A stretch of 64,000 nucleotides of DNA, taken from assembly GCA_964617825.1 (NCBI GenBank), contig CAZTWL010000004.1, positions 71,546-135,545 of the forward strand. Reading direction: 5' to 3'. Positions 4,778 to 63,687 of this stretch are shown here, piece by piece. The notes below the pieces were generated by a model that worked only from the letters and a program-made list of their open reading frames with translations, had not been told where the DNA came from and did no database searches. The translations under genes were made by a program, and so were the position numbers. The stretch's first letter is position 1, and every line of letters starts with the position of its first letter. This DNA is from an uncultured Verrucomicrobiota bacterium. Its GTDB lineage: Bacteria; Verrucomicrobiota; Kiritimatiellia; JAAZAB01.

Positions 4778-4840
4778 GATTGATGTCCCTGCTTATTTCG
4801 ATATATGATTTCAACCGGAAGATGGCGCCTTGCGGTCTAT

Positions 4841-40994: not shown

Positions 40995-41038
40995 ATAAAC
41001 TTTCTAGTTTGGCAGGAATCATTCTTGTATTTCAACCA

Positions 41039-41848: not shown

Positions 41849-42005
41849 ATCGTTTCCTGTTTTGGTTTTTATCCAACACGGATTTGACGCTAGGCTGAAA
41901 TCATCACCACGGTGGTTGATAAATCGGAAAAAGCAATTCCAAACAAGCGCCATCCGCGGCATACTTCTTTATGTATAACTGTTTCCAATATGCAAAAACA
42001 CAAAA

Positions 42006-43340: not shown

Positions 43341-43437
43341 GCTATCGCATGCCTCCCATCTTGTTGCCCATTTTTGCCGGTTTGTGTTTCTGCTCGTTCC
43401 GATCTTAGTCCGAACGTCCGTGGCGCCACTTTCCTGT

Positions 43438-44673: not shown

Positions 44674-44841
44674 TTTTACCTTTTCTGGGTTTAGAGTGAA
44701 ACACCCTAAACATATAGTGGTTATGACGATGTCGGATGCGGATACAAGTTTAAGCCGCCATAATGAAAATAAATTGCCAACCCCTGTCATCCCACAAGGT
44801 CAGACAAATGAGTTAAGACACGGTTAATATCGAAGGAAAAC

Positions 44842-45102
44842 GTGCCTTCCTCGAAAAATCAGTTCCGGTTTTTTGGATCAACATATATGCAGCACACCTC
44901 CTTCCAACACATGGCTGTCCCACAGGAATTAGCCGAATCCTGGCAAACAAGCCGGTTCCGGGGTGCCGCAGATGCGCCCAGGAATACAGATGCGCCAGGT
45001 AACGCAGGATCAAATGGACCAACAGGCCCATCCACTTCTGCCAGCGCACAGCATTGGCGTTATGCCCCAGAAAATCGGCCAGTTGCAAGGTTTGTTTAAT
45101 CT
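44842..45102 (+). other. small + strand ORF (85 aa) inside the repeat region, ending immediately before a perfect 8-bp hairpin and T-rich tract
   Basis: ORF 44842..45099. The hairpin is CACTGGCG-tcccacagggg-CGCCAGTG at 45104..45130, followed by TTCCTGTTTT. Coding status is unproven. Confidence 0.2.
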
Positions 45103-45138
45103 CCACTGGCGTCCCACAGGGGCGCCAGTGTTCCTGTT

Positions 45139-47397
45139 TTAATACTTCTCAGCGAGGGTAATTTCCAAAACTTTGATGTCGCCCGGGCCAACATCAATTG
45201 AGAATGAATTTTTGTTTTTGTCCCAGGCCATATCCGTGCCTTCCCGCAGTTCCTGCACCATGATCGGGGTCAGCGACCGCATGTCGACCGTAACCTTGGC
45301 GGTTTGGGCAACATCCGCCTTTTCCGGCGTGCGCGTGAATTTAGTTACGCCCTTGTTGTTGATCAGATACACCCACCAGCCATCCGACACTTTGTTCAGC
45401 CCATATTCGATATCGCCCTTTACCTCAACCGGCAGGACGTCTTTCACAATCTGCCGCATCAGAATTTGAACAAGAGGATGTTCCCTGGATTTCATGGCCT
45501 TGATGTAAGTATCGTCGTTGTTATCGCAAAAGCTTTTGCGCGGAACCATATAATCGACGGCGGTCAAAACCACCCGCCCCCGGCCATACGCATGCGCGCT
45601 TGCAAGAATCCCGCCCTTGCTGTCACGCCACAGCGGTTCGGCGCCTTTTAGTTCAAGCATTTCATAATCGTATGGCTCGGGCAGCGTTATGGCATCGCTT
45701 CCGCCAACAACATTGACTTTTCCTTCTGTCGCGCACATTTTCCCCGTCCGCCTGACCCCGATAAAATCATCCGGCAGATTGTCGTTAACCTGCCGGGTAT
45801 TGAGGACCAGCGTTCCGCCTTTCTTTACATATTCCTTCAATCGTTTCGCCAGCGCCTGGTCGATATTGAATCCACCCAGCATGATCGCCACCTTGTAATT
45901 CATCAGCGTTTTCAAGGCCACGGGCCCGCTAGGCGGACGGGGCGTAACCACGTCATAGATGTCCCCATATGGGCTGTTTGCCAGGCAGCCTTCCTGGCCT
46001 TGCTTTAAATTCTGCGCCATCGGCACCAAGGTATACATAAAGGCATCGATCATACTGTCCGGACGCTCCATGGGAAAATATGACCAGGGACGTCCGCCAA
46101 ATTGCGGATAACCCTGATTAAATGGAATCATGATCGCCACCGGCGCGTAGCTTGAGCCGCGGTCGGGAAACCATTGGGTGAATGCGTACCATTCCTTCAT
46201 CGCCTCGCCGTACGGGGAAAGCTCGACGTCGCCGCGCGCATCCTGGTTTTTGAATTTCCAATAGGTATATGGCCAGCCTTCGTGTTGGACAATACTGGCC
46301 CCGGCTAAATACGCCAAATACATATTTCGTCGATTAAGCGAAATCGACGGCCCGCAGGTCGGGCCACGGACATGTTCGTCTCCGATACCAAAGGCAGTGG
46401 TATTGGTTGTCAAACAATACGGAAATGCATTGTCATCCCATTTGCCATCCTCGGTAAAGCCGTTATAACAGACGGCAATATACCATTCCCACGGTTTGCC
46501 ATATTGCCGTGCGGCCCCGCGCGCAAACGACATGGCAACTTGGTACCGGTAGGGACCGGTGCTCGACGTTTCCAGAATCACCATCCCGGCGCCCCATTCC
46601 AGCGGGTAATGATCCCAGCACCAGCCACTGTGCAGGAAGATCATTTTTGCCGGATCGTTAAAATAGTAGCGCTGCGCGGCTTTGAAACAGGCATATGATC
46701 CGGCCAACGCCTGATCGCGGCCTTTTCTCGCGTTCACAAGAATGTTGGTTGCCTGCGTTATCATTGCTTCCGAATAATTTTGCGCTCGCAGCCGCTTGAC
46801 ATATTCAAGCACGTTCGTCTGGTGAAGAGCTCCAATATAATCGCTGTCATATTCATCGCCGGCCGCAAATCCCAGAAAATTGGGATGCTCTTTTTTCCAT
46901 TTTTTATATTCTTTATCGTCTACCTTGAAATCATCCATGCACCTGAAATGGGGACGGCTGCCGCCTCCGCCGAGAATAAACGGCACCTTGGGATCGAATT
47001 CCGCTTCATTCAATCGGGCGGCGCTGATCGCAAGACTATTATTCGTGTCCGGTACCAACAGATTCTTGCGCGAATACCAGCGCGCCGCCTCACGCAGCAT
47101 CGGTTCGCTTGAATGTACCATTCTGCCCTGCGAGGCTAGCGCTTTCTTCGTAGGCAACGGCTTGGGATCGGATTTGTTCCGCCAATCCCCGGGAAGCAGA
47201 TTCCAGAACCTGCGTCCCATTATTTGCTGCGGAATTTGATCCGCAGTCGAGTCATAATCCTGCCGGGCGACAATACGGGCGGCATCACTTGAACCGTTCG
47301 TTCCCTCCACGCCGGCGGCGGCCCCAAATGCCGTTAGACAGAGCAGACAGACCATCGGCAGCGTTACGCGGCATATTTTACGCATATTGATTTTCAT
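45139..47397 (-). CDS. putative glycoside hydrolase of an unassigned family, paralog 1 of 3; central domain resembles a beta-galactosidase-trimerisation/ThuA-like fold
   Basis: ~750 aa with a signal peptide. Conserved blocks shared with 51277..53553 and 61441..63687 include IVARQDYD, EHPNFLGF.AG.E.DSD, FLHSGWCWDHYPLEWG, ARQY.K.WSWYIAVCYNG, FPYCLTTN, GPTCG.S.SL.RR.MYL.YL.GAS, SYFPMERPDSMIDAF.YTLVP, CLANSPYGDIYDV and YKVA..LGGF.ID..LAKRL.EYVKKGGTLV.N.RQ. Confidence 0.55.
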   Translation of the reverse strand: MKINMRKICRVTLPMVCLLCLTAFGAAAGVEGTNGSSDAARIVARQDYDSTADQIPQQIMGRRFWNLLPGDWRNKSDPKPLPTKKALASQGRMVHSSEPMLREAARWYSRKNLLVPDTNNSLAISAARLNEAEFDPKVPFILGGGGSRPHFRCMDDFKVDDKEYKKWKKEHPNFLGFAAGDEYDSDYIGALHQTNVLEYVKRLRAQNYSEAMITQATNILVNARKGRDQALAGSYACFKAAQRYYFNDPAKMIFLHSGWCWDHYPLEWGAGMVILETSSTGPYRYQVAMSFARGAARQYGKPWEWYIAVCYNGFTEDGKWDDNAFPYCLTTNTTAFGIGDEHVRGPTCGPSISLNRRNMYLAYLAGASIVQHEGWPYTYWKFKNQDARGDVELSPYGEAMKEWYAFTQWFPDRGSSYAPVAIMIPFNQGYPQFGGRPWSYFPMERPDSMIDAFMYTLVPMAQNLKQGQEGCLANSPYGDIYDVVTPRPPSGPVALKTLMNYKVAIMLGGFNIDQALAKRLKEYVKKGGTLVLNTRQVNDNLPDDFIGVRRTGKMCATEGKVNVVGGSDAITLPEPYDYEMLELKGAEPLWRDSKGGILASAHAYGRGRVVLTAVDYMVPRKSFCDNNDDTYIKAMKSREHPLVQILMRQIVKDVLPVEVKGDIEYGLNKVSDGWWVYLINNKGVTKFTRTPEKADVAQTAKVTVDMRSLTPIMVQELREGTDMAWDKNKNSFSIDVGPGDIKVLEITLAEKY

Positions 47398-47415
47398 ACT
47401 TATCACTTTCTTGTT

Positions 47416-50400
47416 TTATTTTCTTTTTTGCCCGAAAATCCATTCCGTCAATCCCGGTTCCTTGTACGCATGATTCCAGGCATCGTGCTTGACATTTTCC
47501 CATTCCGTATAGCGCGGGCTGCCGCCGGCTTTTTTAATGGCGGCGATCATATTTCGGCTGTTTATGACGGGAACCGAGGTATCCAGCGCGCCGTGGAAAG
47601 CCCAGATCGGTATATCCTTGATGCTGGCCGCCCTGGTGACATCGCCGCCGCCGCATAGCGGCACTGCCGCTGCAAACATGTCCGGCCTCCGGCATATAAT
47701 GTCAAAAACAGCGTACCCGCCCAAGGATTGGCCGTTGACATAAATCCGGGCGTTGTCAATCGGATATTCCGCGACAATCCGGTCAATGATTTCAAGCGTC
47801 ATTTTCATTTCGCGGGTTATGGCCGGCTGAATATGTTCTGTTTTGCCACAGTCCGTGTCCACCCATCGGTGATTCTCAGGAATTTGAGGTGCCACGATAA
47901 AACAGGGATATTTTGATTGAATCTCCCGGTCAGCATACACTTTTGCATAGTTAAGCTGCGCCAGGTTGTCGTTGCCCGCACTCCCGGAGCCATGAAAATA
48001 GACTATCAGCGGATATTTTTCGCCTTCCCTGATATTTTCTGGAATAAACAACCGGCAAGGCAGTGTTCCGTTCGTTCCGGATTCATGGATAAACACCCTA
48101 AAACCATTGACAATGTTGGTACCGTCTGGCCGGGCACGGGATTGGCCGGATGCTTTTACCGGCACGGCGCGGACGTCGTCAATCTCGGCCCGGTCCGTGA
48201 CCCCGAGCGCCAGCGTCGCAACAGGCGGATAGTCAACCGGGAGGGTATGGATAAATTCATAGCGCTTCCATTGAGATGCCGGCGTTAAATTCAAGTCTGC
48301 CTCGCCTAATTTGGTTACCTTGAATAGTTTCGCGGTGTTGTAATGATAAAGGGACACTTCTATCTTGCCCAGGCCGCGGGCGGCAAATGAAATTTCAAAC
48401 GTGTCGCCGGGCTTCATCGCCACTTTCATACTGTTTAAAATCACGCCGCCATCGATCTGGAGGGAATTTTTGCCCGCGTACGCCCCCTCGGACAGTATCG
48501 TGGCCATTCGGCCCCCCGCATAGTGCAATTTCCAGTCTTTCGGCACTATCGGCGGCTGGTTACCGAACTTCCATGTTCCGGATTTATGCTTCTTGAGCAA
48601 GGCTTCGTTGTCCAGCGTGATCGTTTCCTCAAACCCTCCGTTGGCGATAATGGGACCGGCAAAGGTTACCCCGCGAAAACTGCTGATATCATGGAACGAG
48701 CCGTCCATCCAGGAACTGATCTCGGCTTTGCCGGCATTCCTGCTCCGCCCAACATTCATCAGCCAGCGACCACCGTCGGCAATATTTCCGCCCAGCGACT
48801 TGGCCGAAACTTTCATCTCCACGGTCCATTGGTTCGTTCCGGCCAGGGCCGCCACCTGGGCATCGGTATTGAAATTAACCGCGCCAATCGTCGGCGCGCC
48901 GGGCTTGCATTCGGAATCGCGCAAGGCGCCGGCGAAATTGATTGCCATGTGGACGTAACGTTTGCCGTCCCCCGCCGGATCGATAAACAGCTCCACCGTG
49001 TTGCCGTCCCAGATTTTATTATCATCGCGCTCCCTGGTTTTGGCCATGAGCTTGCCCGGCAGGGGCTCGTCCATCTCCAGACCGGCATAAAGATTTTCGT
49101 TGTCGTAGAGCAGGCGCACGGAGGTCTGCGCTTCGGCCACCGCGCCATTTGACCGGATGAAACCGGTCGCGCGTTCGCATAAGCCCCAGTCGACTTCGTC
49201 CAGTTTACCATCAAGCGTGACAGGGGCGGTGATCCGTGCCGCGTGCACGTCGTTGGCCTGCCGTTTGATGTATTGCTCGCGCGCCTTCAGCCATCCTTCC
49301 TTGAAAATCTCCTTGTCCTTCGCGATGCGCTTCAGGACAACCGGGTCTCCCGTGGCGGCCTTCTCCGCCTCGTCCAGCATGTCGGAGAGCGCCTTGATCG
49401 CGGATGGCGACTCAACGCTCTTGCCGATGGCGCCGTAGCTGGAGCCGTAGATAAAGTCCCCGGGGGTTTCGTCCCAGAGCTTGCGCGCCAGGGCCTGGTA
49501 GCGCCCCATGGCTCCGGAGGCCGGGCCGTAATATTTATCGTTCAAATCCTTCAGCAGCGCGTCCACATCCGCGTTGATGTTCCAGGCCAGCTTGGCCTGG
49601 ACGTAATGCATAGCCATGTTTGCCCGCCAGAAATCCCAGTTGCGCGGGCTGTCGTACAATCCGTTGCTGTGCCGGTAATTACCGTCCGGAGGTATGGTCC
49701 CTATACCCCACGCGGTGTGTCCCAGGCGGTGCGAGTAACGCATATCGCCGGCCACGATATATTCGAGCGGGGCGCAGAGAATCCCGGCCGTTCTTTCGTT
49801 TTGCTCACCCGCATAGATGACGTAATAGGTAGCGAGCTGCATCGAGCTAACAACCTTGGCCCATCCTTCAAGCATGTCGCGGAACCACTGGTTGGCTGGA
49901 CAGTTAGTGTCACCCAGCGAGTGCCGGTAACAGCGGTCGTGGTCAAAGAACACGAACTTGAGCCGGGGGTCAAAGCGGACGCCGGTCGGCGGGATACGGA
50001 AATTCTGGTAGGCCCTCCCGTACAAATCCGCATCCGGAAACTCGCTAAAGACACGATTGGCAATTTCGTTCTCGAAAACGGCAAAGCGCGTGGCCACTGC
50101 ACCTTTCCTGCGCTCATCCGGCGGGTCCAACACCAGACATTTCTCGCACTGGCACCAGCCGCCGCAATCGTTGTTGGCTATCTGGAACTGGCCGTCCGGG
50201 AACTTTCTGAAAAAATCAAGGACGTACTTTGTCGCAAGGTCTATCACTTCCGGGTTCGAGGTGCAGGGCTGGAAACGCACTCTCTTGTCCTGTGATTGCC
50301 GGCAACGCTTGCCATCGATCAATGCAAAATATTCCGGATGCGCTTCAAACAGGCTGTCGGGCACCATCTTCAGCATTACATTATCGCTGCCGCCATGCAC

Positions 50401-51066
50401 AGTGTAACGTCCGCGTTTCTCAACTTCTTCGCGCCCACTCCTCATCGAGCAAGGCTTCACCCTGTTGCGCGCACACCAGTCCCAGGAATTTGTCGTCTTG
50501 GCAGTGGTAGCCGTATTGCAGTAACCCATACTACGCTGCTTGAACGACGGATTCTGCCGGTTGTTTATCCGCCTGATTTTCAGCGTGGGAGTCTTGGGGC
50601 AGTATTCGCCATCCTCGCCGGGAAAGAACCAGCGCATCCCGACGTGCTCCTCAAGGAACGCATAGACGCCATACAGGACCCCGAGCGGCGTCTTGCCGGC
50701 AATCAGCAGCCCGCGCTCATCCGACCTGATAAGGACGCCTTGATCCGAAAGCGACTGCACATCTTTCAGTGCCCCTAGCTTGGCGATTGCCGGACACGTT
50801 TCCGGCGTTCCGAGCCAGATGCTGTATTTGTCCGCCTGCGGCGCATTGCTCTGCGCAACCCGGGCTCCGGTCACCTTGCCGAGGAAAAGGCACAATTCCT
50901 CAGCCGCGTGTTTCTCCACCACCGAGGCTTTGTCGCCGATTACCACCGCGCAGCGGGAATTGCCTTTGTCAACAAGCGCGATGGAGCCGGCAGGCAAATC
51001 CCTGTTACGTGCGCAGGCACAGACCAGCAAGAGGCATAAAACAAGCATGGTGATCCTAGATGTCAT
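47416..51066 (-). CDS. multidomain carbohydrate-active protein: DUF4838-like putative GH domain + CBM9-like + CBM4_9-like + C-terminal alpha/beta-hydrolase esterase
   Basis: 1216 aa with a signal peptide (MTSRITMLVLCLLLVCACA). The N-terminal ~560 aa resemble DUF4838 (LGVLYGVYAFLEEHVGMRWFFPGE). A CBM9-like block follows (ITAPVTLDGKLDEVDW...VHMAINFAGALRDSE), then a CBM4_9-like beta-sandwich (IIANGGFEE...LQIDGG). The last ~270 aa are an esterase with GQSLGG, homologous to 41039..41848. Confidence 0.6.
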   Translation of the reverse strand: MTSRITMLVLCLLLVCACARNRDLPAGSIALVDKGNSRCAVVIGDKASVVEKHAAEELCLFLGKVTGARVAQSNAPQADKYSIWLGTPETCPAIAKLGALKDVQSLSDQGVLIRSDERGLLIAGKTPLGVLYGVYAFLEEHVGMRWFFPGEDGEYCPKTPTLKIRRINNRQNPSFKQRSMGYCNTATTAKTTNSWDWCARNRVKPCSMRSGREEVEKRGRYTVHGGSDNVMLKMVPDSLFEAHPEYFALIDGKRCRQSQDKRVRFQPCTSNPEVIDLATKYVLDFFRKFPDGQFQIANNDCGGWCQCEKCLVLDPPDERRKGAVATRFAVFENEIANRVFSEFPDADLYGRAYQNFRIPPTGVRFDPRLKFVFFDHDRCYRHSLGDTNCPANQWFRDMLEGWAKVVSSMQLATYYVIYAGEQNERTAGILCAPLEYIVAGDMRYSHRLGHTAWGIGTIPPDGNYRHSNGLYDSPRNWDFWRANMAMHYVQAKLAWNINADVDALLKDLNDKYYGPASGAMGRYQALARKLWDETPGDFIYGSSYGAIGKSVESPSAIKALSDMLDEAEKAATGDPVVLKRIAKDKEIFKEGWLKAREQYIKRQANDVHAARITAPVTLDGKLDEVDWGLCERATGFIRSNGAVAEAQTSVRLLYDNENLYAGLEMDEPLPGKLMAKTRERDDNKIWDGNTVELFIDPAGDGKRYVHMAINFAGALRDSECKPGAPTIGAVNFNTDAQVAALAGTNQWTVEMKVSAKSLGGNIADGGRWLMNVGRSRNAGKAEISSWMDGSFHDISSFRGVTFAGPIIANGGFEETITLDNEALLKKHKSGTWKFGNQPPIVPKDWKLHYAGGRMATILSEGAYAGKNSLQIDGGVILNSMKVAMKPGDTFEISFAARGLGKIEVSLYHYNTAKLFKVTKLGEADLNLTPASQWKRYEFIHTLPVDYPPVATLALGVTDRAEIDDVRAVPVKASGQSRARPDGTNIVNGFRVFIHESGTNGTLPCRLFIPENIREGEKYPLIVYFHGSGSAGNDNLAQLNYAKVYADREIQSKYPCFIVAPQIPENHRWVDTDCGKTEHIQPAITREMKMTLEIIDRIVAEYPIDNARIYVNGQSLGGYAVFDIICRRPDMFAAAVPLCGGGDVTRAASIKDIPIWAFHGALDTSVPVINSRNMIAAIKKAGGSPRYTEWENVKHDAWNHAYKEPGLTEWIFGQKRK

Positions 51067-51270
51067 GTTTTTCCTTTATCATCCCACAGGATGCTCTGGC
51101 CGAGGGCTGTGGGCCGTAGACCGTAGGAAAACACCAAGAAAAGAGATGATTATGAAAAGCCCTTCAAAATCATCAGTTCCGGTTTTTCCAACTTGGATTT
51201 GTTCGATTCCGACTTACAGCCTTCGGCCTACAGTCTACAGTCCGAGGTGCCCCTGTGGGACGCCAGTGTT
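51067..51270. repeat. intergenic repeat element copy B (~200 nt), homologous to 7381..7570
   Basis: It shows the same three-block structure. A CCCACAGG...(17 nt)...CTGTGGG palindrome lies ~45 nt upstream of the 47416..51066 start codon. Confidence 0.6.
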
Positions 51271-51276
51271 GCTGAG

Positions 51277-53553
51277 TCATTCTTTAATTTCCACTACTTT
51301 GATGTCACCCGGACCGACAGTGAGGGACAAGGACTTCCCGACACGATCCCAGCTAACATCTTGCTCTTCCCTCAATTCGCGAACTTGTTTCGCGGCCAAA
51401 TCCCGCAGGCGAATGGTTACTTGGGCAGACGCGGCCGGATCCAGCTTCTCGGCCGTGCGCGTAAACTTGGTTACGCCCTTGTTATTGATCAGATAGACCC
51501 ACCAACCGCCTTCGACCCGGTTAACTCCATACTCAATCTCCCCCACGACTTCAACTGGCAGCGCTTCCCGTACAATCTGGCGCATAAGCAATTGGATCAG
51601 CGGCAGATTGCGGGCTTTCATGGCTCTGATGAACGTATCGTCGTTGTTATCGCAAATACTCTTGCGCGGCACCATGTAATCGGCGGTGGTCAGGACGACC
51701 CGTCCGCGGCCATAATCGTTCACGCTGGCCAGGACACCACCCTGTCCGTCCAACCACAAAGGCTGCGCGCCACGCAAATCAACCTGCTCATAATCGTAGG
51801 GCTCGGTGAGCGTCACGGACGACTTTCCATCCGCCGTCCGGATCTCGCCTTCCGTCCCGCAGACTTTGCCCGACCGCTGTGCGCCGATGAACTCCGCCGG
51901 TAGATTGGCATTAACCTGCCTTATATTAATGACCAGCGTTCCGCCTTTTTTAACATATTCCCTGAGGCGCCTGGCCAGCGCCTTGTCAATATCGAAGCCC
52001 CCGAGCATGACCGCCACTTTGTAATTCATAAGCGTTTTCAACGCCACAGGTCCGCTTGGCGGATTCGGCAGGATGACATCATAGATGTCTCCGTACGGAC
52101 TATTGGCAAGGCATCCTTCCTGTCCCTGCTTCAGATATTGCATCAGTGGCACCAGGGTATACGTGAACGCGTCGATCATGCTATCCGGCCGCTCCATCGG
52201 GAAATAGGACCAGGGACGTCCGCCCCATTGCGGGGCGCCCTGGTTGAACGGAATCATCAACGCTACCGGCGTATAGGCCACACCACGTGCCGGGTGCCGG
52301 CGCGCGAACGCATAGCTGTCCTTAATCGCTGCGCCATAAGGGGACAGCTCCCATTCTTCCGCGTGCTTTTCCTTGCTCCCCTTGACAAACTGGCAATAGG
52401 CATAAGGCCAGGTCTCATTCTCGACGAAACTTGCCCCGCTCAAGTAAGCCAGATACATATCCCGCCGGTTTAGTGAAACCGACATGCCGCAGGTCGGGCC
52501 ACGGACATGGCCGCTGGCGGCAATCGGAGATTCATTGGTGGTTAGGCAGTAAGGAAAGGCATTGTCGTCCCATTTTCCATCCTCGGTGAAACCGTTATAA
52601 CAGACCGCAATATACCAGCTCCAGAATTTGTGGTATTGGCGCGCCGCTCCACGGGAAAAAAACATGCCCAACTGATGACGGTATGACCCCGTACCGCTGG
52701 TTTCCAAAGTAATGCCGCCGGCCCCCCACTCCATGGGATAATGGTCCCAAGTCCAGGCCGAGTGCAAAAAGAGCAGCTTATCGCAATCGTTAAAAAAGTA
52801 CCCGCGCCAGGCATCATGGCATTTCTTCAACCCCGCCACCGCTTCCCAACGCCCTTTTTGACTCGCCTCTATCACTTGGCTGGCGGACTGGACGCAGGCC
52901 TCAATATCCTTCTCGGCAAAACCTTTGCGCCTTAAATCATTCCGCAACCAATCGGCACCCTGGTACCCTTCGAAATCAAGTCCGGCTTTCTTGCTTTTCG
53001 CCAATGCGCCAACAAAGTCGCTGTCGAATTCGTCGCCGGCCATGAACCCGACAAAATTCGGGTATTGTTCTTTCCAATGCTTATAGGTGGAATAATTTGG
53101 GCGAAATGGCAGCATGTACGCCAGGGGTGGACGACCTCCAGCACTTAACATAAAAGGCACGTTCGTCTCCGGCTTGATGCACGAACCTTTCAACTTGAGA
53201 TTGGTCATATCGACGACCAGAGGATTATTGGTTGTGCTCAGGGACGCGCCATATCGCACTGCCGATTCGAACACCATCGGCTCAGAGCTGATATATTTTG
53301 CCATTTTGTATTCATTCGCCCAGTTGGTCCATATTTTAACACTCATCAGATTCCAAAAATCGCGTCCCGTAAAGACCGGCAAGGTCCAGTCCGGGGAAAT
53401 GTCAAAATCCGTCCGGGCCACAATTCGATTATCGTTCGTTCGGCATATTCCTTCGTCAACCTTGCAAGGATTGAACGCACACCCCCCGACCAGGATCCAT
53501 ATCGCTGCCGGCAACAAAATACTGCAGACTATTCCACGCAGTTTATTTGACAT
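51277..53553 (-). CDS. putative glycoside hydrolase of an unassigned family, paralog 2 of 3 (lipoprotein-type signal LVGGC)
   Basis: 758 aa, colinear with paralog 1 (about 55-60% identity over the conserved core). Confidence 0.55.
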   Translation of the reverse strand: MSNKLRGIVCSILLPAAIWILVGGCAFNPCKVDEGICRTNDNRIVARTDFDISPDWTLPVFTGRDFWNLMSVKIWTNWANEYKMAKYISSEPMVFESAVRYGASLSTTNNPLVVDMTNLKLKGSCIKPETNVPFMLSAGGRPPLAYMLPFRPNYSTYKHWKEQYPNFVGFMAGDEFDSDFVGALAKSKKAGLDFEGYQGADWLRNDLRRKGFAEKDIEACVQSASQVIEASQKGRWEAVAGLKKCHDAWRGYFFNDCDKLLFLHSAWTWDHYPMEWGAGGITLETSGTGSYRHQLGMFFSRGAARQYHKFWSWYIAVCYNGFTEDGKWDDNAFPYCLTTNESPIAASGHVRGPTCGMSVSLNRRDMYLAYLSGASFVENETWPYAYCQFVKGSKEKHAEEWELSPYGAAIKDSYAFARRHPARGVAYTPVALMIPFNQGAPQWGGRPWSYFPMERPDSMIDAFTYTLVPLMQYLKQGQEGCLANSPYGDIYDVILPNPPSGPVALKTLMNYKVAVMLGGFDIDKALARRLREYVKKGGTLVINIRQVNANLPAEFIGAQRSGKVCGTEGEIRTADGKSSVTLTEPYDYEQVDLRGAQPLWLDGQGGVLASVNDYGRGRVVLTTADYMVPRKSICDNNDDTFIRAMKARNLPLIQLLMRQIVREALPVEVVGEIEYGVNRVEGGWWVYLINNKGVTKFTRTAEKLDPAASAQVTIRLRDLAAKQVRELREEQDVSWDRVGKSLSLTVGPGDIKVVEIKE

Positions 53554-53641
53554 ATACTAACATTTCACTTGGATTAACATCATGATGTGCCTGCTTGTAC
53601 GCCACTTTGCCTCTGCCTTGGAGAATATGGCCGCGGCAAAA

Positions 53642-56155: not shown

Positions 56156-56261
56156 GTTAATGCAAGGTAATATTTGCCAAGCACGTCACACTAGTCACCA
56201 ATTGCACCACATTTTGATAAAAAACAACACGAATATTGCACGTACGATCACCACAATCTGT

Positions 56262-59186
56262 TTATCGCACCGGCACAGCGGTAACCTCATCAATGGCGGC
56301 CTGGCCATCAATGCCGATGGCAAGCTTCATAATTTGCGGGTAGCCCGCCGGGTGCACATAGTCCAATGCCCATGGCTTCCATTCCGGCGTAAGCTCCAAT
56401 TCCCCCACTTTAGTAACTTTGAAAATAGATTGAGCGCCGTTTCCCGGATCGATAGAATAGTGATAGATATTTACCGTTATCTTGCCCTTGCCACGCGCAA
56501 CGAAGGAGATGCGTAGCTTGGCGCCTTCCTTCATCATGACGGTCATGTCGTTCATAATTATGCCGCCGTCGATTTGGAGGGACTGTTTGCCCGCGTAGGC
56601 ACCTTCGGTCAACACCGTGGCCATCCGTCCGCCCGCATAGTGCAATTGCCAGTTTTTCGGCGCCAGCGGCGGCGTGTTGCCGAACTTCCATGTTCCGGCC
56701 CCGTAGCGCTTGATGAGGGCCGCGCTGTCCAGGGTGACGGTGTCCTCGAACCCGCCGTTGGCAATAATGGGGCCTATGAACGCAACCCCGCGAAAACTGC
56801 TGCTATCATGGAACGATCCGTCCATCCAGGAACTGACCTCGGATTGGCCTGCCTGCCGCACCCTGCCAACGTTCATCATCCAGCGGCCGCCATCGAGTAT
56901 GGAACCTCCCAACGACTTGGCCGACACTTTCATCTCCACGATCCATTTGTTTGTCCCGATCAGGGATACCACCTGGGCATCGGTATTGAAATTAACCTCG
57001 CCAATTGTCGGCGCGCCGGGCTTGCATTCGGAATCGCGCAACGCGCCGATGCTATTGATTGCCATGTGCACATAACGTTTGCCATCTCCGTCCGGATCGA
57101 CAAACAGCTCCACCGTATTTCCGTCCCAGATTTTCGCGTTATCACGTTCCTTGGTTTTAGCGACAAGTTGTTCCGGTTCCGGCTCGTCCATCTCCAGCCC
57201 GGCGTAAAGGTTTTCGCCGTCGTAAAGCAGGCGCACGGCGGTCTGAACCTTGGCCGCCGCGCCGTCCGCCCGGATGAAACCGCTGACGCGCTCGCATGTG
57301 CCCCAGTCCGCCTCTTCAAGCTTGCCGTCAACCGTGATGGGGGCGGTGATCCGCGCCGCGCGCACATCGTTGGACTGCCGTTTGATGTATTGCTCACGCG
57401 CCTTCAGCCAGCCTTCCTTGAAAATATCCTTGTCCTTCGCGATGCGCTTCAGGACGACCGGGTCTCCCGCGGCAGCCTTTTCAGCTTCGTCCAGCAGGTC
57501 GGAGAGCGCTTTGATCGCGGCCGGAGACTCAACGCTCTTGCCGATTGCGCCGTAGCTGGATCCATAAATAAAGTCCCCGGGAGTTGCCTTCCAGAGCTTG
57601 CGCGCCAGGGCCTGGTAACGTTCAATAGCATCCGCCGCCGGACCGTAGAATTTCGCGTTTAGATCCTTCATTAATGCGTCAACATCCAGGTCAGGATTCC
57701 AGGCCAGCTTGGCCTGCACATAATGCGCCAGCAGGTTTGCCCGCCAAAATTCCTTGTTCCGCGGGCTATTGTAGACTCCGTTGCTGTGCCGGTAATCACC
57801 ATCGGGGGGAATTGTCGACATGGACCATTCGGTGTGCCCCAGGCGATACATGTACCGCAAATCATCGGCCACAATATATTCAAGCGGCGCACAGAGTATG
57901 CCTGCGGTCCGTTCGGAAGTCTCGCCGGCATAAATACAGTAATAATTAAAAATCCCGCGTGGATTTCCGGTCTTGGCCCAGCTTTCAAACATATTACGGA
58001 ACCACTTATTCGCCTGACAGGACGGATCCGGGAGTGAATGCCGGTAACAGCGATAGTGATCGCAAATCATGATTATTATGCGAGGATCGGGCCTCACGTT
58101 GGCCGGGGGCATCTGAAAATTCTGGTAGGCCAGCATCTTGACACACGCATTGGGACATTCGCGGTAAACGCGCTTGAAGACTTCGTTGGCATAGATGGTG
58201 AAACGGGTGGAAACACGGTTGGCCTTGCGCTCTTCCGGCGGGTCTTGGGCCACACAATTCGTGCACTGGCACCAGCCGCCGCAATCATTGTTGATCAAGG
58301 TGAATTGGCCGTCCGGATGTTCCTTGAAATACTTGATCACACGTTTGGCCGACATTTCAATGACCTCCGGATTGGAAGTGCAGGGCTGGCTCATAAACCT
58401 TCCATTAGGACTCAATTGCTTGCGGCGCGTACCATCAATCAACGCAAAATATTCCGGGTGGGTGTCAAATAGGCTGTCAGGGACCAATGCGAACATAATA
58501 TGCCCGCCCCATTTCGGGATAGCTCCGCCGCGTTTTTCGAATTCGGCCTTGTGCTCTGGGCGAAATCCGATCAGCTGCATCCGATTACGCACAGCCCAGT
58601 CCCATGTATTTGTCATTTTTGCATTGACGGCCGTGTTGCCCAAACCAAGAACCCGCTCCTTGAAAGCCGGATTCTGTTTTTCGTCGATTCGCCCGATTTC
58701 CAGAGTCGGCTTGCTTGGGCAATACTCGCCGTCCTCGCCCGGGAAAAACCAGCGCATCCCGACATGCTCTTCAAGAAACGCATACACACCATACAGGACC
58801 CCGAGCGGCGTCTTGCCGGCGATCAGCAGCCCGCGCTCATCCGACCTGATGAGGAAGCCTTGATCCGAAAGCGCCTGCACATCTTTCAGCGCCCCGAGCT
58901 TGGCGATCGCGGGACACGTTTCCGGCGTGCCGAGCCAAATGCTGTATTTGTCCGCCTGCGGCGCATTGGTCGGCGCAATCCAAGCCCCGGTCACCTTGCC
59001 AAGAAAAAAACATAATTCCTCGGCCGCGTGTTTCTCCGTCAATGAAAACTTTTCGCCCATCACCACCGCGCATCGGAAATTGCCCTTGTCAACCAGCGCG
59101 ATGGAGCCGGCAGGCAACGCCCTGTTCCGGACACAGGCACTGGCCAGCAAAAGGCATAAAACAAGCGTGGTGATTTTGGATGTCAT
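56262..59186 (-). CDS. DUF4838-like + CBM9-like + CBM4_9-like protein, paralog of 47416..51066 lacking the esterase domain
   Basis: 974 aa, colinear with and ~70% identical to the first ~960 aa of the 1216-aa protein. The signal peptide is MTSKITTLVLCLLLASACV. Its upstream region shares ATAAAGGAAAAAC-ATGACATC with the paralog. Confidence 0.6.
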   Translation of the reverse strand: MTSKITTLVLCLLLASACVRNRALPAGSIALVDKGNFRCAVVMGEKFSLTEKHAAEELCFFLGKVTGAWIAPTNAPQADKYSIWLGTPETCPAIAKLGALKDVQALSDQGFLIRSDERGLLIAGKTPLGVLYGVYAFLEEHVGMRWFFPGEDGEYCPSKPTLEIGRIDEKQNPAFKERVLGLGNTAVNAKMTNTWDWAVRNRMQLIGFRPEHKAEFEKRGGAIPKWGGHIMFALVPDSLFDTHPEYFALIDGTRRKQLSPNGRFMSQPCTSNPEVIEMSAKRVIKYFKEHPDGQFTLINNDCGGWCQCTNCVAQDPPEERKANRVSTRFTIYANEVFKRVYRECPNACVKMLAYQNFQMPPANVRPDPRIIIMICDHYRCYRHSLPDPSCQANKWFRNMFESWAKTGNPRGIFNYYCIYAGETSERTAGILCAPLEYIVADDLRYMYRLGHTEWSMSTIPPDGDYRHSNGVYNSPRNKEFWRANLLAHYVQAKLAWNPDLDVDALMKDLNAKFYGPAADAIERYQALARKLWKATPGDFIYGSSYGAIGKSVESPAAIKALSDLLDEAEKAAAGDPVVLKRIAKDKDIFKEGWLKAREQYIKRQSNDVRAARITAPITVDGKLEEADWGTCERVSGFIRADGAAAKVQTAVRLLYDGENLYAGLEMDEPEPEQLVAKTKERDNAKIWDGNTVELFVDPDGDGKRYVHMAINSIGALRDSECKPGAPTIGEVNFNTDAQVVSLIGTNKWIVEMKVSAKSLGGSILDGGRWMMNVGRVRQAGQSEVSSWMDGSFHDSSSFRGVAFIGPIIANGGFEDTVTLDSAALIKRYGAGTWKFGNTPPLAPKNWQLHYAGGRMATVLTEGAYAGKQSLQIDGGIIMNDMTVMMKEGAKLRISFVARGKGKITVNIYHYSIDPGNGAQSIFKVTKVGELELTPEWKPWALDYVHPAGYPQIMKLAIGIDGQAAIDEVTAVPVR

Positions 59187-59241
59187 GTTTTTCCTTTATT
59201 AACAACCACTTGTTGTCCGAATAAATAAGGAGTTCGATGTT

Positions 59242-60594
59242 TTATTTAGATTCAAATATCAGCGTCATGACTGAATGCGACGCAATCTTAAACCTGGCAA
59301 TTTGCGGAGCGCAGCGGAGCACGAATTCTTTTTCAGCATCGGTCCTGTTCATCACCACCGCAACGATTTCGCCCGAAAGATTTCTTGCAGCGGTGACCTC
59401 GAGATCCGGCGTATATTTGCTGAAGCCGATAATGTGCGCGCCGGGCTGGATGTATTTGCTGATGTGCCCGATGTAATAATAAGAAGACTTAAAAATTATC
59501 TTTTTCTTTTTCGTGTCGACAATTATCGGGGCATCGCAGGCATTCCCAACGTGGTTTGGCCCCCCCTGTTCGTCCAGCGCCATGTTCCAATCGATCCAGC
59601 CCTGTGACCAGTGGTTCAGGTCGCCAATAATATCGTGTAAATATTTTTCACCGTTGATCCAGTCGTTCCTTTCATGACCGTGAAGGCATCCTTCCGTGAA
59701 GATCAATCCTTTTTCCGGGAAGAGCGCATGGAGAGCGGACAGCGCTTCGAAATGGTCGCCGGAATACCAGTGGAAGGCAGTGCCCCAAACGTACTTGGCG
59801 GCCTTGCGATCGGCAAATACGGTCTGGGCGCGATCAAAAACCCGCTCCTTGTTATGGTCCCATACCAGCAGCCTGATGCTACCGTGTCCGTGCCTCTTTA
59901 GCGAAGGCCCCAGGTGGTTTTTGACGAAATCCCTCTCCTCCTCGGCGGTATATACGCAGGAATCAAATGGTTGGGTCGCCTTAGGCTCGTTCTGAACGGT
60001 TAGATAACGGATCTTGATGCCTTCCTTCGCATATGCGGCAATGTATTTGGAATAGTATTCAGCCCAGATTTTGCGGCAGTCGGGCCTTAGTTTCCCGCCT
60101 AAATTCATCTTTCCGGTGGTTTTCATCCAGTCCGGCGGGCTCCAGGGCGAGGAAAGGATGCCGAGTTTTGAGCCCCTGATCACCTGGGCGGCCTTGATCA
60201 TCGGGATGAGGTGCTGCTTGTCGCGCTCGATACAGAACGTCATGAGCCGGCGATCATTCTTGGCCGTGTAGTGATAGTTTTCGGTGGAAAAGTCGCAACT
60301 GTTGATGTGCGTGCGGCACAGGCTGTAGTTCAAGCCTTTTGCGGTGTCAAAACAGGCTTTCAGCACTTTTTCCCTGATTGCCGGGCCGGCCTTGTCCAGC
60401 GTAACTGCCGCCGACTCCGTGAAGGCTCCGCCGAACCCCTCGATCTTCTGGTAATGTACCTGGGGAAAGATGTTGATCACCTTTTGTTCGACGCCTTCAG
60501 TATCTTTCTCGAAAAGGACGCTACGCTTTTCCGACAGTCTGTCAGCCGTTTCCCGAGAAGTAAGCACCACTCTTATCGCGTTTTTTGATTTCAT
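59242..60594 (-). CDS. glycoside hydrolase family 30
   Basis: 450 aa with KIEGFGGAFTESAA at the N-terminus and GH30-like length. No signal peptide. Confidence 0.65.
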   Translation of the reverse strand: MKSKNAIRVVLTSRETADRLSEKRSVLFEKDTEGVEQKVINIFPQVHYQKIEGFGGAFTESAAVTLDKAGPAIREKVLKACFDTAKGLNYSLCRTHINSCDFSTENYHYTAKNDRRLMTFCIERDKQHLIPMIKAAQVIRGSKLGILSSPWSPPDWMKTTGKMNLGGKLRPDCRKIWAEYYSKYIAAYAKEGIKIRYLTVQNEPKATQPFDSCVYTAEEERDFVKNHLGPSLKRHGHGSIRLLVWDHNKERVFDRAQTVFADRKAAKYVWGTAFHWYSGDHFEALSALHALFPEKGLIFTEGCLHGHERNDWINGEKYLHDIIGDLNHWSQGWIDWNMALDEQGGPNHVGNACDAPIIVDTKKKKIIFKSSYYYIGHISKYIQPGAHIIGFSKYTPDLEVTAARNLSGEIVAVVMNRTDAEKEFVLRCAPQIARFKIASHSVMTLIFESK

Positions 60595-60754
60595 CTTCCC
60601 CTTCCATTAATAACCTGTTCAATTCCGCTGTTTCACCATAGCAACACGCCCAAGCGAGGCAGATCCATCCAAGTAGCCACATGGCTGTTCAAAGCAATAT
60701 CGACATCAGGAATAACATCATTCGATTTAGCGATAAGGCTCGTTTCTTTTGAAA

Positions 60755-61381
60755 TTACTGGGCAACCCCGTGTTCTGTAAAGGCCACAAGCCAGCCGGCA
60801 ATATAGGCCGCCTGATTTTTCCGGATGTGATCATGAAAATGAATGTGATCGCAGTACAGGTCTGCCCCCAGATTCAAGGTAAAGGTGTACAAATCGATGG
60901 AAGGGACCCCATGATCTTTCATAATTCGATCTGCCGCCAGATTGTATGCGTCACAATCAGCCGCAAAACGATGGAAGTTCACGCCACCTTGATTGTGGAC
61001 CACCTCATCGCAGGGTGTGGTTCTGATCCAGATCGGCTTTGGACGCATTGTCGCAACCGTTTGCAGAATAGCCCTCAAGTTGTCTTCGTATTGCCTGATG
61101 GGGATTTGTTTCCGCCCGGTTAGCGGGTCAGTCCGGATATCGTGAAGACCGCAATTCATGAGCAGCAGGTCTGCGTCAATACCATTGCCGCGAGCCTTAC
61201 CCTTGAGAAATGTCAGGACCATCGACGAATCGCCGCCATTTGCTCCCTGGGGTTTATCCAAATTAAGAAGGGCCTCCTCCTCGCCCGCCTTTCGGGAGTA
61301 CTCCATGATGCCCTTCAAGTCTGCTTGCAGATAAGGTCCATAGTGGATCGAAATGCTATCGCCGATAATGTAAATCTTCAT
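60755..61381 (-). CDS. SGNH/GDSL-family hydrolase (carbohydrate esterase-like)
   Basis: 208 aa with block I GDSIS at the N-terminus and a C-terminal DxxH (DHIHF). No signal peptide. Confidence 0.65.
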   Translation of the reverse strand: MKIYIIGDSISIHYGPYLQADLKGIMEYSRKAGEEEALLNLDKPQGANGGDSSMVLTFLKGKARGNGIDADLLLMNCGLHDIRTDPLTGRKQIPIRQYEDNLRAILQTVATMRPKPIWIRTTPCDEVVHNQGGVNFHRFAADCDAYNLAADRIMKDHGVPSIDLYTFTLNLGADLYCDHIHFHDHIRKNQAAYIAGWLVAFTEHGVAQ

Positions 61382-61440
61382 ATTGTTGGTCCTGGTTTTG
61401 ATTGATAAATTGCTTCACGCATCAAGATTCCATAAATATT

Positions 61441-63687
61441 TTATTTATCCCGAACGGTAATCTTCACGACCTTGATATCTCCGGGACCAACGTCAATGAA
61501 AAACGATTTCCCATCCCGATCCCAGGCTATATCCTCTTCCGCCCGCAACTCCCGTACGCCGCCTACCGCCAGCTTGCGCATATTCACGGCAACTCGTGCA
61601 GTCGCAGCGGAATTCAAGCGCTCTGGCGTCAGCACGAATTTACTGACACCCTTGTTGTTGATCAAATAGACCCACCAGCCGTCAGCTACTTTGTTCAATC
61701 CGTATTCGATATCCCCTTTAACTTCAACCGGCAGCGCTTCCTGCACGATTTGCTGCATAAGCAATTGGACCAACGGATGCTGGCGCGCTTTCATGGCTCT
61801 AATGTATGCATCGATGTTTATATCGCAAAAGCTCTTGCGCGGCAGCATAAAATCCACTCCCGTCAAAACGACCCGCCCTGAACCATATTGGTTCACGCTC
61901 GCCAATATGCCACCCTTGCCATCAAGCCAAAGCGGTTTTGCCCCATTCAACTCTATTTGCTCGTAATCATAAGGTTCGCTTAATACGGCCGAATGGCAAC
62001 CACCTGCAACCTTGATCGCGCCATCCGTTCCACACACTATCCCTGACCGCTTGGCCCCGACAAAATCCTCCGGCAGCGTATCGCCGAACTGCCTGATGTT
62101 GACGACGAGCGTTCCTCCTTTTTTCACATACTTCATCAGCCGTTTTGCCAACGGCTTGTCGATCTTGAATCCGCCCAGCAGAATGGCCACCTTGTAATTC
62201 ATTAAAACATCCAACGCCACCACGCCATGCGGCGGATTCGGCAGGATCACATCGTAAATATCGCCATACGGGCTGTTTGCCAGGCAACCTTCCAGACCTT
62301 CCGACAATTTGTCTGAAAATGGGACCAGGGTATAGGTGAAGGCGTCAATCATGGAATCCGGCCGCTCCATTGGGAAATAAGACCAGGGGCTACCGCCCCA
62401 TTGCGCATATCCCTGGTTAAACGGAATCAGGAGCGCCACCGGCGCGTAGCTTACACCGCGATCGGGATGACGTTGCGCGAACGCATATAGTTCCTTCAGA
62501 TCCTCGCCGAACGGCGAAAGTTCGTAACCGTCTTTCTTGTTATGGTTTTTGAATTGCCAATAGGCATAGGGATAGGTTTCGGGTTGCACCATGCTTGCCC
62601 CGGCCAGGTATCCCAAATAGAAATCCCGACGGTGCAATGAAGGCGACATGCCGCAGGTCGGACCGTAGACATCGCCATTCCCGACAAACGTGGGGGCATC
62701 ATTGGTAGTCAGAAAATAAGGGAACACATTCGACCGGTATTTTCCATTTTCCTCATTACCATTATAGCATACGGCTATATACCAACTCCAAAACTTGAGA
62801 TATTGCCGGGCTGCCCCGCGGGCAAAAAACATCGAAACCTGGTGCCGGTAGGGCCCGGTATTGGTAGTTTCCATGATTGCGCCCGCTGAGCCCCATTCCA
62901 GAGGATAGTGGTCCCAGCACCACCCGCCCCGCAAAAAAAGCATTTTTTCAGGATCGTCAAAGCAATATTTTCTGGCCGCCAGATAACATTCACGTAGGGC
63001 GGCCAGGGCATGGTCGCGATCCTTGGATGCCGGCGCAAAAATGTCCCGCATGCGGTTGACGACGTCATCCGACATCCCCCATTTGCGGAGAAGTTTTACG
63101 CTTTCATTGACGTCCCGCCTCAGGTAGCCCATAAAATCGCTATCCCATTCCGCGCCGGCCATGAATCCCAGGAAATTAGGATGCTCCTTTTTCCATTTCC
63201 GATAGCCTTTCTTCTCAACCTGAAAGGATTGCTGACAGGCCAAAAAGGGGCGGCTGCTTAGAACAAATGGCACCCCCATGTCGGGATCCATGTTCTGCAA
63301 TTTTGCATCGTTCATCAGAAGGACGCCGTCGTTTGTGCTCAGTAGTCCGTCACGGACGTGATAACAAGGCACCGCGTCATGGACCATGGCCTCGTTCGAA
63401 TAGGCATAACGTTCCTGCGGATTGTAGCGCAATTCCCGGGGACGATTGTCCGATTTCAAGTATAGATATCTGCCCAGCACATTCCAGAATCTCCGCCCCA
63501 TGATTTCCGGCGGCGCCAGTTTGGCGCTCACATCGTAATCCTGCCTTGCCACAATTCTCTCTGGTTTCGCGCAATCGTCCGCCGGCGCGGCGTCCAGGAT
63601 TAAAGCTGTCGGCACCTGTAAAGCCACGATCAGCATCACGGCTAATTTTATGTCCAAACAATGCACGCCGTCTTTCCTTTCTTTCAA
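61441..63687 (-). CDS. putative glycoside hydrolase of an unassigned family, paralog 3 of 3
   Basis: 748 aa with an N-terminal hydrophobic anchor. It shares the same conserved blocks as paralogs 1 and 2. Confidence 0.55.
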   Translation of the reverse strand: MKERKDGVHCLDIKLAVMLIVALQVPTALILDAAPADDCAKPERIVARQDYDVSAKLAPPEIMGRRFWNVLGRYLYLKSDNRPRELRYNPQERYAYSNEAMVHDAVPCYHVRDGLLSTNDGVLLMNDAKLQNMDPDMGVPFVLSSRPFLACQQSFQVEKKGYRKWKKEHPNFLGFMAGAEWDSDFMGYLRRDVNESVKLLRKWGMSDDVVNRMRDIFAPASKDRDHALAALRECYLAARKYCFDDPEKMLFLRGGWCWDHYPLEWGSAGAIMETTNTGPYRHQVSMFFARGAARQYLKFWSWYIAVCYNGNEENGKYRSNVFPYFLTTNDAPTFVGNGDVYGPTCGMSPSLHRRDFYLGYLAGASMVQPETYPYAYWQFKNHNKKDGYELSPFGEDLKELYAFAQRHPDRGVSYAPVALLIPFNQGYAQWGGSPWSYFPMERPDSMIDAFTYTLVPFSDKLSEGLEGCLANSPYGDIYDVILPNPPHGVVALDVLMNYKVAILLGGFKIDKPLAKRLMKYVKKGGTLVVNIRQFGDTLPEDFVGAKRSGIVCGTDGAIKVAGGCHSAVLSEPYDYEQIELNGAKPLWLDGKGGILASVNQYGSGRVVLTGVDFMLPRKSFCDINIDAYIRAMKARQHPLVQLLMQQIVQEALPVEVKGDIEYGLNKVADGWWVYLINNKGVSKFVLTPERLNSAATARVAVNMRKLAVGGVRELRAEEDIAWDRDGKSFFIDVGPGDIKVVKITVRDK

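Follow-up and report, generated by a model that had tools for sequence, protein, structure and literature searches.

A 64,000-nucleotide stretch of contig CAZTWL010000004.1 from an uncultured bacterium of the Verrucomicrobiota (Kiritimatiellia; assembly GCA_964617825.1), hereafter the window, carries between positions 45139 and 63687 an unbroken series of eight minus-strand open reading frames (ORFs), which are all present and intact in the ORF listing, just as a first-pass annotation made from the sequence alone had described them. Three of these genes encode paralogs of about 750 amino acids (aa), denoted here X1, X2 and X3 and referred to together as family X, and two others encode large multidomain proteins with a DUF4838 domain, the giants. 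The co-directional run of genes for carbohydrate-active enzymes (CAZymes) continues below 45139 down to 39618, adding a beta-helix protein, a glycoside hydrolase (GH) of family GH10, an esterase and a second GH30 enzyme; the functional unit is, therefore, about 24 kb long and comprises 12 genes (39618..63687), not eight. Below 39618 lie unrelated genes, namely those for a DUF362 Fe-S protein, an aminotransferase, a methyltransferase, LptD, RNase E/G, PBP2 and RodA, which reveal a chromosomal, diderm context. The region 45139..63687 is the upper two-thirds of a co-directional polysaccharide-degradation cluster of about 24 kb in a diderm bacterium, probably one of the PVC/Planctomycetota type to judge from the taxa in which the closest homologues occur. 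Here we argue, with a probability of about 0.62, that the best explanation of its most conspicuous component is that family X consists of exported proteins of GH42 architecture that use E175 as the acid/base and E284 in place of the strand-7 nucleophile, and that stand beside the DUF4838 giants. The genes of the cluster are as follows.

61441..63687, minus strand: X3, a family X paralog of 748 aa with an uncertain TTG start, 56-58% identical to X1 and X2; a GH42/GH164-like three-domain protein without a Pfam or NCBIfam match
60755..61381, minus strand: esterase of the GDSL/SGNH type, 208 aa (PF13472, 37.1 bits at a cutoff of 32.9), no signal sequence seen by eye
59242..60594, minus strand: GH30 glycosidase, 450 aa (PF02055, E = 1e-72), closer to the beta-1,6-glucanase than to the xylanase branch
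56262..59186, minus strand: giant 2, 974 aa, with a lipoprotein-like N-terminus, a GH67N/GH20b-like domain, a DUF4838 TIM barrel and a carbohydrate-binding module (CBM) of family CBM9
53642..56155, minus strand: clan GH-A enzyme of 837 aa, GH42/GH5-like, with the motifs ITNE (acid/base) and VVSEW (nucleophile); no signal peptide seen
51277..53553, minus strand: X2, a family X paralog of 758 aa with a lipobox-like LVGGC; the copy used for the structure model
47416..51066, minus strand: giant 1, 1216 aa, with the architecture of giant 2 plus a C-terminal esterase domain of the polyhydroxybutyrate (PHB)-depolymerase/CE1 type and a weak, sub-cutoff CBM4_9
45139..47406, minus strand: X1, a family X paralog of 755 aa counted from a GTG codon, with a Sec-type signal
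43438..44790, minus strand: right-handed beta-helix protein, 450 aa (PF13229, E = 4e-10), in the same co-directional cluster
42006..43541, minus strand: GH10 domain protein (PF00331, E = 4.6e-30, residues 190-446)
41039..41962, minus strand: secreted alpha/beta-hydrolase esterase, PHB-depolymerase/CE1-like, a paralog of the C-terminal domain of giant 1
39618..40994, minus strand: second, divergent GH30, 458 aa (PF02055, E = 2.5e-26), at the lower end of the CAZyme cluster

X1, X2 and X3 align from end to end with 57-59% amino-acid identity and contain every motif that had been quoted for them, that is, FPYCLTTN, GPTCG.S.SL.RR.MYLAYL.GAS, SYFPMERPDSMIDAF, CLANSPYGDIYDV and YKVA..LGGF.ID..LA.RL.EYVKKGGTLV. 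The ORF of X1 begins 9 bp past the stop codon of giant 1, and its probable start is an ATG at 47397, three codons inside the GTG-initiated frame 45139..47406. For the three pairs, the nonsynonymous divergence (dN) is 0.34-0.37, whereas the synonymous divergence (dS) is saturated at 2.3-3.0 (Nei-Gojobori method). Low dN combined with saturated dS and intact reading frames indicates that these genes are conserved under purifying selection, so that the possibility of decaying pseudogenes, which would have undermined the earlier description, does not materialize. The N-termini, judged by eye, are of the Sec type in X1 and of the lipobox type in X2, giant 1 and giant 2.

The first-pass annotation could not assign the core of these proteins to any family, and the searches lead to the same result. 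None of the Pfam and NCBIfam models reaches threshold with the window copies or with eight diverse homologues; the only sub-threshold matches, GLMA_2nd, GH42M and DUF4350, are confined to the middle domain. PF02449, the GH42 barrel model, yields no match at E<=5 for two window copies and the eight homologues, nor for X1 at E<=0.01, and a profile built from the three paralogs finds nothing among the PDB sequences at E<=10. Published work on family X was not found in literature searches, and all 144 relatives retrieved in a word-indexed search are labelled 'hypothetical'. Nevertheless, the family is sizeable: an exhaustive hidden Markov model (HMM) search of 1.84 billion clusters formed at 50% identity returned 2177 cluster representatives at E<=1e-3, 1384 at E<=1e-10 and 756 at E<=1e-30, and 201 loci were identified when each species was represented by a single genome. 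These come from Kiritimatiellae, Lentisphaeria/Victivallales, Planctomycetaceae/Thermoguttaceae, Armatimonadia, Prolixibacteraceae, Omnitrophota and Pyrinomonadaceae/Acidobacteriota, the last of which contribute more loci than any other group and include Pyrinomonas methylaliphatogenes K22, a cultured organism. In part of the family, the protein is fused to GH32, F5/8-C, CBM4_9, CBM9, NPCBM or laminin-G modules, and such GH32 and CBM partners are typical of catalytic CAZyme modules. Judging from these sequence data, family X appears to be a sizeable unnamed family of exported glycosidases.

The three copies in the window do not owe their presence to recent local events. X1 shares 85% identity with P0002, a protein of another assembly (encoded on an 86,059-bp NCBI contig with at least seven family X genes), and only 58-59% with X2 and X3, and in a neighbour-joining tree X1, X2 and X3 fall into separate clades that are interleaved with proteins from other assemblies. 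Hence, these are old paralogous lineages kept side by side rather than recent local duplicates, and the phrase 'repeated duplication inside one locus', by which the array had been characterized, is misleading. A recent tandem duplication of a unit consisting of a giant and a family X gene was considered and rejected as well, given that the giants are 70.6% identical to each other as against 57-59% for the X copies, and given the interleaving of the latter with other genomes.

An AlphaFold2 model of X2, the numbering of which is used throughout for family X, was obtained from a 68-sequence alignment with high confidence (predicted local distance difference test score, pLDDT, 90.3; predicted TM-score, pTM, 0.91). 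The model consists of a barrel (residues ~45-425), a GH42M-like domain (~428-665) and a beta-sandwich (~668-758), and Foldseek aligns it with structures of GH42-type architecture at E-values from 7e-19 to 1e-15 and probability 1.0, the best matches being the IaSGT transglycosylase structures. Profile comparisons converge on the middle domain: in the PDB, the 68-sequence profile picks up the trimerisation domain of Bs164 (6t5o; E = 9e-6) and Op5Man5 (E = 1e-3), and residues 492-619 of family X align with residues 442-564 of 1kwg with an hhalign probability of 92% (E = 7e-7). The GH42 reference in the latter comparison, as in those below, was a five-sequence alignment of the beta-galactosidase of T. 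thermophilus A4, verified to be 100% identical to 1kwg_A, and four other GH42 sequences from the PDB. The family X profile matches no GH42 barrel in the PDB. In addition, the model contains a four-helix insert (residues 176-252) directly after the strand that ends in E175, and a 'subdomain H' is inserted after strand 4 in both GH42 and GH164 (PMC7105311), to which this insert corresponds. The model, thus, predicts all the components of the GH42 architecture: a TIM barrel whose strand 4 leads into a helical subdomain, a trimerisation domain of the GH42 type with a flavodoxin/ThuA-like fold, and a beta-sandwich at the C-terminus, in line with the earlier suggestion of a trimerisation or ThuA-like C-terminal part within a GH42-like protein with a divergent barrel. 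By analogy, the family X proteins are probably trimeric.

Identification of the catalytic centre depends on the order of the barrel elements. According to the predicted secondary structure of X2, three strands precede residue 167, and E175 closes the next one (167-174); a short helix comes after strand 260-264, helix 293-307 after strand 280-288, in which E284 is located, and helix 359-371 after strand 310-322; and E380 stands at the end of strand 376-379, with helix 405-419 further downstream. The next segment, P429-VALMIPF (429-436), pairs with P398-VALVFDY, the first strand of domain B of GH42 in 1kwg. In the model, the order of these elements appears to match that of GH42 one to one. Local hhalign alignments place HPNFLGF..G.E175 of family X opposite HP....W..NE141 of 1kwg, R301-G...PW311.W313-Y314 opposite R301-G...FW309-V-M-E312, and G373-A-S..V..E380.W382 opposite G343-A-E-V-V-S-Y-F350-R-W352. 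In these low-weight alignments, the place of the strand-7 nucleophilic glutamate of GH42 is, accordingly, taken by Y314.

The conservation of these residues was counted over 254 diverse family X members, down to about 25% identity. E175 is found in 221 of the 222 members, whereas the asparagine that would be expected before it is not conserved; E284 is present in 241 of 248, and the other seven have a glutamate one residue later; E380 and R301 are invariant (252/252 and 250/250, respectively), and H271 occurs in 228 of 245 members. Position 314 is occupied by tyrosine in 229 and by phenylalanine in 17 of the 251 members, and the family alignment contains no conserved carboxylate within two residues of this position on either side or in the loop after its strand. 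The few distant subgroups with Asp or Glu at position 314 suggest that this position faces the active site, and these relatives may keep a more canonical nucleophile. Among the distant relatives of ~590-1080 aa (P0113, P0192, P0211, P0229; P0110-P0120), some of which have Asp or Glu at the Y314 position, several lack an alignable E175 region.

The catalytic centre can, then, be envisaged as follows. E175, at the end of strand 4, would be the general acid/base, in the manner of clan GH-A enzymes, and the strand-7 glutamate nucleophile would have been replaced by Tyr or Phe at position 314. E284 on strand 6, lying about where a tyrosine of GH42 hydrogen-bonds the nucleophile, would most likely provide the second carboxylate, which amounts to a swap of Glu and Tyr between strands 6 and 7, and the E380-x-W382 motif at the end of strand 8 would line the -1 subsite. 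Family X proteins would act as exo-glycosidases on the oligosaccharides that the endo-enzymes of the cluster set free in the periplasm or on the cell surface. We infer the strand placement of E175, E284, Y314 and E380, as well as the mechanism, oligomeric state, exo-action and substrate of family X; what the data show is its gene content and paralogy, the purifying selection, the absence of a family assignment, the fold with its architecture, and the conservation of residues.

Several observations weigh against this reconstruction. The barrel-level hhalign comparisons with GH42, although all collinear, are each non-significant (probabilities below 1%), and they set the Asn-Glu acid/base pair of GH42 opposite residues 178-179 of family X, not opposite E175; positions 178 and 179 are N and D/E in ~70-80% of the members. 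The gene context of family X gives no consistent substrate. Moreover, the Pyrinomonadaceae have a single homologue of ~940 aa with an N-terminal extension of ~200 aa (e.g. positions 8699-11509 of locus L043, P. methylaliphatogenes K22), and in most of the loci examined (L035-L082) its gene is found between those for a chlorite-dismutase-like protein (HemQ/ChdC-type) and a phosphoribosyltransferase, a housekeeping context that does not look like a polysaccharide-degradation locus. Finally, family X may already have a CAZy number, albeit with neither a Pfam model nor a structure.

Which glutamate acts as the nucleophile is the point on which the closest competing explanation turns. Should the strand numbering be off by one, E380 would be the strand-7 nucleophile, and family X would be an ordinary, if very divergent, GH42/GH164-like group of clan GH-A retaining beta-glycosidases with the usual mechanism. 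E380 is, indeed, the only absolutely invariant glutamate, it comes after a hydrophobic strand, it lies ~130 residues from the 'YKV' motif of domain B, much as the nucleophile of Bs164 and GH42 is spaced from that motif, and the barrel alignments that speak against such a nucleophile are statistically weak. However, the predicted order of elements fits GH42 best with E380 on strand 8: the segments 260-264, 280-288 and 310-316 then become strands 5, 6 and 7, GAS.V..E.W corresponds to GAEVVSYFRW of strand 8, helix 405-419 is helix 8, and PVALMIPF is equivalent to PVALVFDY, the first strand of domain B. Under the shifted numbering, 260-264 would be strand 4 with no conserved carboxylate after it (D270 is present in only 127 of 245 members), and the helical subdomain would follow strand 3, unlike the situation in GH42 and GH164; on account of these two consequences, we rate the shifted numbering lower and consider it unlikely.

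Tyr or Phe at the canonical nucleophile position could also mean that these proteins are not simple hydrolases, and act instead through substrate assistance on N-acetylhexosaminides, by inversion, or as transglycosylases similar to the GH35 beta-1,2-glucosyltransferase. The IaSGT transglycosylase structures at the top of the Foldseek list fit with this, as does the company family X keeps: DUF4838 genes adjoin it in the window, and at 32 other loci two of the neighbouring ORFs are GH20 and two are DUF4838. The GH112 phosphorylases set a precedent for a GH42-like fold that dispenses with an enzymic nucleophile. Nonetheless, the near-invariant E284 and E380 are both available as nucleophile or base, which makes a non-hydrolase rather improbable, and the predicted export of the proteins counts against phosphorylase chemistry in particular; a GH112-like phosphorylase was rejected because of the export signals seen by eye in the family X proteins. 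Still further down the scale we place a pseudo-glycosidase that has kept the fold and lost catalysis to become a glycan-binding or scaffolding surface protein. The lack of the canonical nucleophile and of any characterised member, together with the non-CAZyme surroundings of the Pyrinomonadaceae homologue, would be compatible with such a fate, but three glutamates, a histidine, several arginines and an aromatic cluster are near-absolutely conserved in the barrel across the 254 members, a pattern typical of an active site and not of a relic, and the fusions to CBM and GH32 modules are typical of catalytic ones; it is, thus, very improbable that family X is inert.

We return to family X as putative GH42-architecture glycosidases with E175 and E284 as the probable catalytic pair. 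The three-domain layout and the helical subdomain after strand 4 are common to family X, GH42 (1KWK, 3TTS, 4OIF, 5XB7) and the GH164 enzyme Bs164 (6T5O); domain B is homologous by sequence profile, and putative strand 4 terminates in a glutamate in family X, too. Yet the identity is only 10-13%, and the barrel of family X is not detected by PF02449 or any sequence method. Family X further differs from both families by the Tyr/Phe at the strand-7 Glu position, by additional invariant glutamates, which map to putative strands 6 and 8, by export (as judged by eye) and by a conserved N-terminal extension of ~45 residues (RIVAR.D.D). GH42 enzymes are typically cytoplasmic. When sequence membership of GH164 is tested with the catalytic residues of Bs164, E160 on strand 4 and E297 on strand 7, family X falls outside that family. 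A GH164-like gene was observed in a metagenome contig from JGI (locus L087, 4788-6746), where it is split into ORFs of 341, 112 and 140 aa, either as a frameshifted pseudogene or through an assembly error; hhalign detects no signal between this gene and family X. The same architecture is shared by the GH35-type exo-beta-glucosaminidase GlmA (5GSM, 8OUG) and the beta-1,2-glucosyltransferase IaSGT (7VKW, 7X87), with no sequence relationship in the barrel. Both enzymes keep the canonical GH-A catalytic pair.

Family X is, thus, a good candidate for an unassigned new family of a known architectural kind, GH42/GH164-like and derived from clan GH-A, in which the catalytic arrangement is probably non-canonical. 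The more far-reaching scenario, in which a new GH family arose from the GH42/GH164 lineage by movement of the nucleophile from strand 7 to strand 6, acquired a novel specificity and has retained its old paralogs side by side in glycan loci of the Planctomycetes-Verrucomicrobia-Chlamydiae type, we entertain only tentatively, at well below even odds. The first-pass annotation had put forward both of its unassigned families as candidates for new GH or carbohydrate esterase (CE) activities; family X has proved to be a good GH lead, the giants belong to the known DUF4838 superfamily, and a CE activity finds no support for either family since both have glycosidase-type TIM barrels.

The giants match PF16126 (DUF4838) over essentially the full profile with 126.6 and 155.3 bits, at a cutoff of 26.6, and both combine this domain with a GH67N/GH20b-like N-terminal domain and CBM9. 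Their earlier description as paralogs with DUF4838-like and CBM9-like parts is, hence, correct, whereas the CBM4_9 module also attributed to them is limited to a weak match below the cutoff in giant 1. In both GH163 and GH185, distant relatives of GH20, catalysis resides in a DUF4838 domain; the GH163 enzyme BT1035 cleaves GlcNAc-beta1,2-Man in complex N-glycans, and the GH185 enzyme Sp_0475 is a 6-sulfo-beta-GlcNAcase (PMC10570127). Therefore, the giants do not form an unassigned family, and it is only their subgroup that is uncharacterised. For the giants, 492 homologues were found, many with the GH67N+DUF4838+CBM9 architecture, which is common in Kiritimatiellae, Lentisphaeria, Verrucomicrobia, Planctomycetes, Brocadiaceae and Omnitrophota, goes under the NCBI name 'DUF4838 domain-containing protein' and is likewise uncharacterised. 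The two giants, both intact, are 70.6% identical (dN 0.205, dS 0.88), and, by this measure, appear to have diverged more recently than the X copies. A DUF4838 gene (143-2530) immediately upstream of a family X gene (2751-4973) was seen in locus L009, a metagenome-assembled genome of Victivallales; this is the only other locus with the adjacency of a giant and a following X gene that occurs twice in the window.

A model of residues 1-600 of a giant (pLDDT 94.5) has GH115 as its nearest solved fold, with GH84, GH138 and GH89 scoring lower, and the AlphaFold model of Sp_0475 is nearest to GH115 as well. No PDB entry is related to the giants by sequence, and neither Pfam nor sequence searches match them to the catalytic domains of GH115 and GH67; the xylan alpha-glucuronidases of these families (7PXQ, 4ZMH, 1K9D) are only 11-16% identical to the giants, and the characterised DUF4838 enzymes are of the retaining beta-hexosaminidase type, not inverting alpha-glucuronidases (PMC10570127). 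BT1035 and Sp_0475 share with the giants the GH20b/GH67N-like N-terminal domain in front of DUF4838. For Sp_0475, the catalytic residues Q174, H227, D309 and Y436 have been reported, to which the near-invariant H243, D301 and Y354 of the subgroup of the giants can be likened by residue type only. The giants add CBM9 and, in giant 1, the esterase and the weak CBM4_9, where BT1035 carries F5/8-C instead. They also possess a cluster of four cysteines, C269, C306, C308 and C311 (QPC...GWC.C..C in the 974-aa giant), which is invariant across 63 homologues of the DUF4838 subgroup and, judging by this conservation, may bind a structural metal ion; neither such a cluster nor zinc is mentioned in the GH185 paper (PMC10570127). 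Finally, the genes around the giants, with GH10, GH30 and a CE1-type esterase, resemble a setting for plant or fungal cell-wall material and not for the host glycans of GH163 and GH185.

The esterase encoded at 41039..41962 and the domain at the C-terminus of giant 1 (47416-48300) have 61.5% identical residues, a kinship which indicates that an esterase module was duplicated inside the locus, with a fusion or a split, and hence that modules have been shuffled. In our reading, the giants sit at the cell surface as lipoprotein-like members of the GH163/GH185 superfamily, have a fold resembling those of GH115, GH67 and GH20, are tethered to the polymer by CBM9 and, in one case, carry a fused esterase.

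Were family X active, it would form a new CAZy family, with a size between several hundred and over 1000 sequence clusters, and its hosts (Kiritimatiellae, Lentisphaeria/Victivallales, Planctomycetota, Armatimonadota, Prolixibacteraceae, Acidobacteriota) have glycan-degrading repertoires rich in unannotated genes. A relocated nucleophile in a GH42-like scaffold, if true, would be a clear case of migration of a catalytic residue in clan GH-A, and would account, too, for the failure of sequence models to detect family X. The three diverged X paralogs and the two DUF4838 enzymes make up a compact set for heterologous expression, which could assign a function to the uncharacterised DUF4838 subgroup with its fold closest to the xylan alpha-glucuronidases.

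As to the substrate of the cluster, the domain searches agree with the neighbours named in the first-pass annotation, namely GH10, two GH30, a GH5-like enzyme and esterases; the target deduced from them, the side chains of xylan or hemicellulose, is weakly indicated. The GH30 at 59242..60594 scores 269 bits with the model of the BT3312 endo-beta-1,6-glucanase and 32 with that of XynC, both below the equivalog cutoffs, and the GH30 at 39618..40994 scores 187 and 32 bits, respectively; the two are only 26% identical to each other and, by these scores, both look more like beta-1,6-glucanases than xylanases. The xylan side of the balance holds one divergent GH10, the CE1-type and GDSL esterases, CBM9 with the weak CBM4_9, and the GH115/GH67-like fold of the giants. 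The ORF of the GH10 protein shares ~100 nt with that of the beta-helix protein upstream, and the match to Pfam begins at residue 190, so that the start of the GH10 gene is probably internal and the long N-terminus probably not translated. The 837-aa protein, which appears from its motifs to be a canonical clan GH-A enzyme, was counted against the xylan target. It scores 20.9 bits with PF02449, just below the cutoff of 21, also has a weak match to GH5 mannanases, aligns with the GH42 alignment in hhalign at E = 3.5e-4 over 590 columns, and contains the GH42-type helical subdomain (W-L-x-x-K-Y-G...L-x-x-S-W); it may represent another unassigned GH42/GH5-like family.

Comparison with other loci yields a varied picture. 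A tblastn search of the 12 proteins of the locus against 86 related loci revealed no conserved synteny, and a regular-expression search of the retrieved loci for GH42 genes found none, as did a probe of Thermus pTT27. The 102 nearest ORFs pooled from 32 other family X loci encode LacI/XylR regulators, GFO/IDH/MocA oxidoreductases and GH29 fucosidases, along with GHL6/GH42M proteins, GH20, DUF4838, sulfatases and BNR proteins, and in one locus of Kiritimatiellae family X occurs with two GH2 genes, three sulfatases and GH78. A homologue of the beta-helix protein lies near family X in locus L006. The window also encodes two proteins that combine DUF362 with a 4Fe-4S ferredoxin domain, at 5785-6927 and at 38304-39467, the latter directly below the CAZyme cluster.

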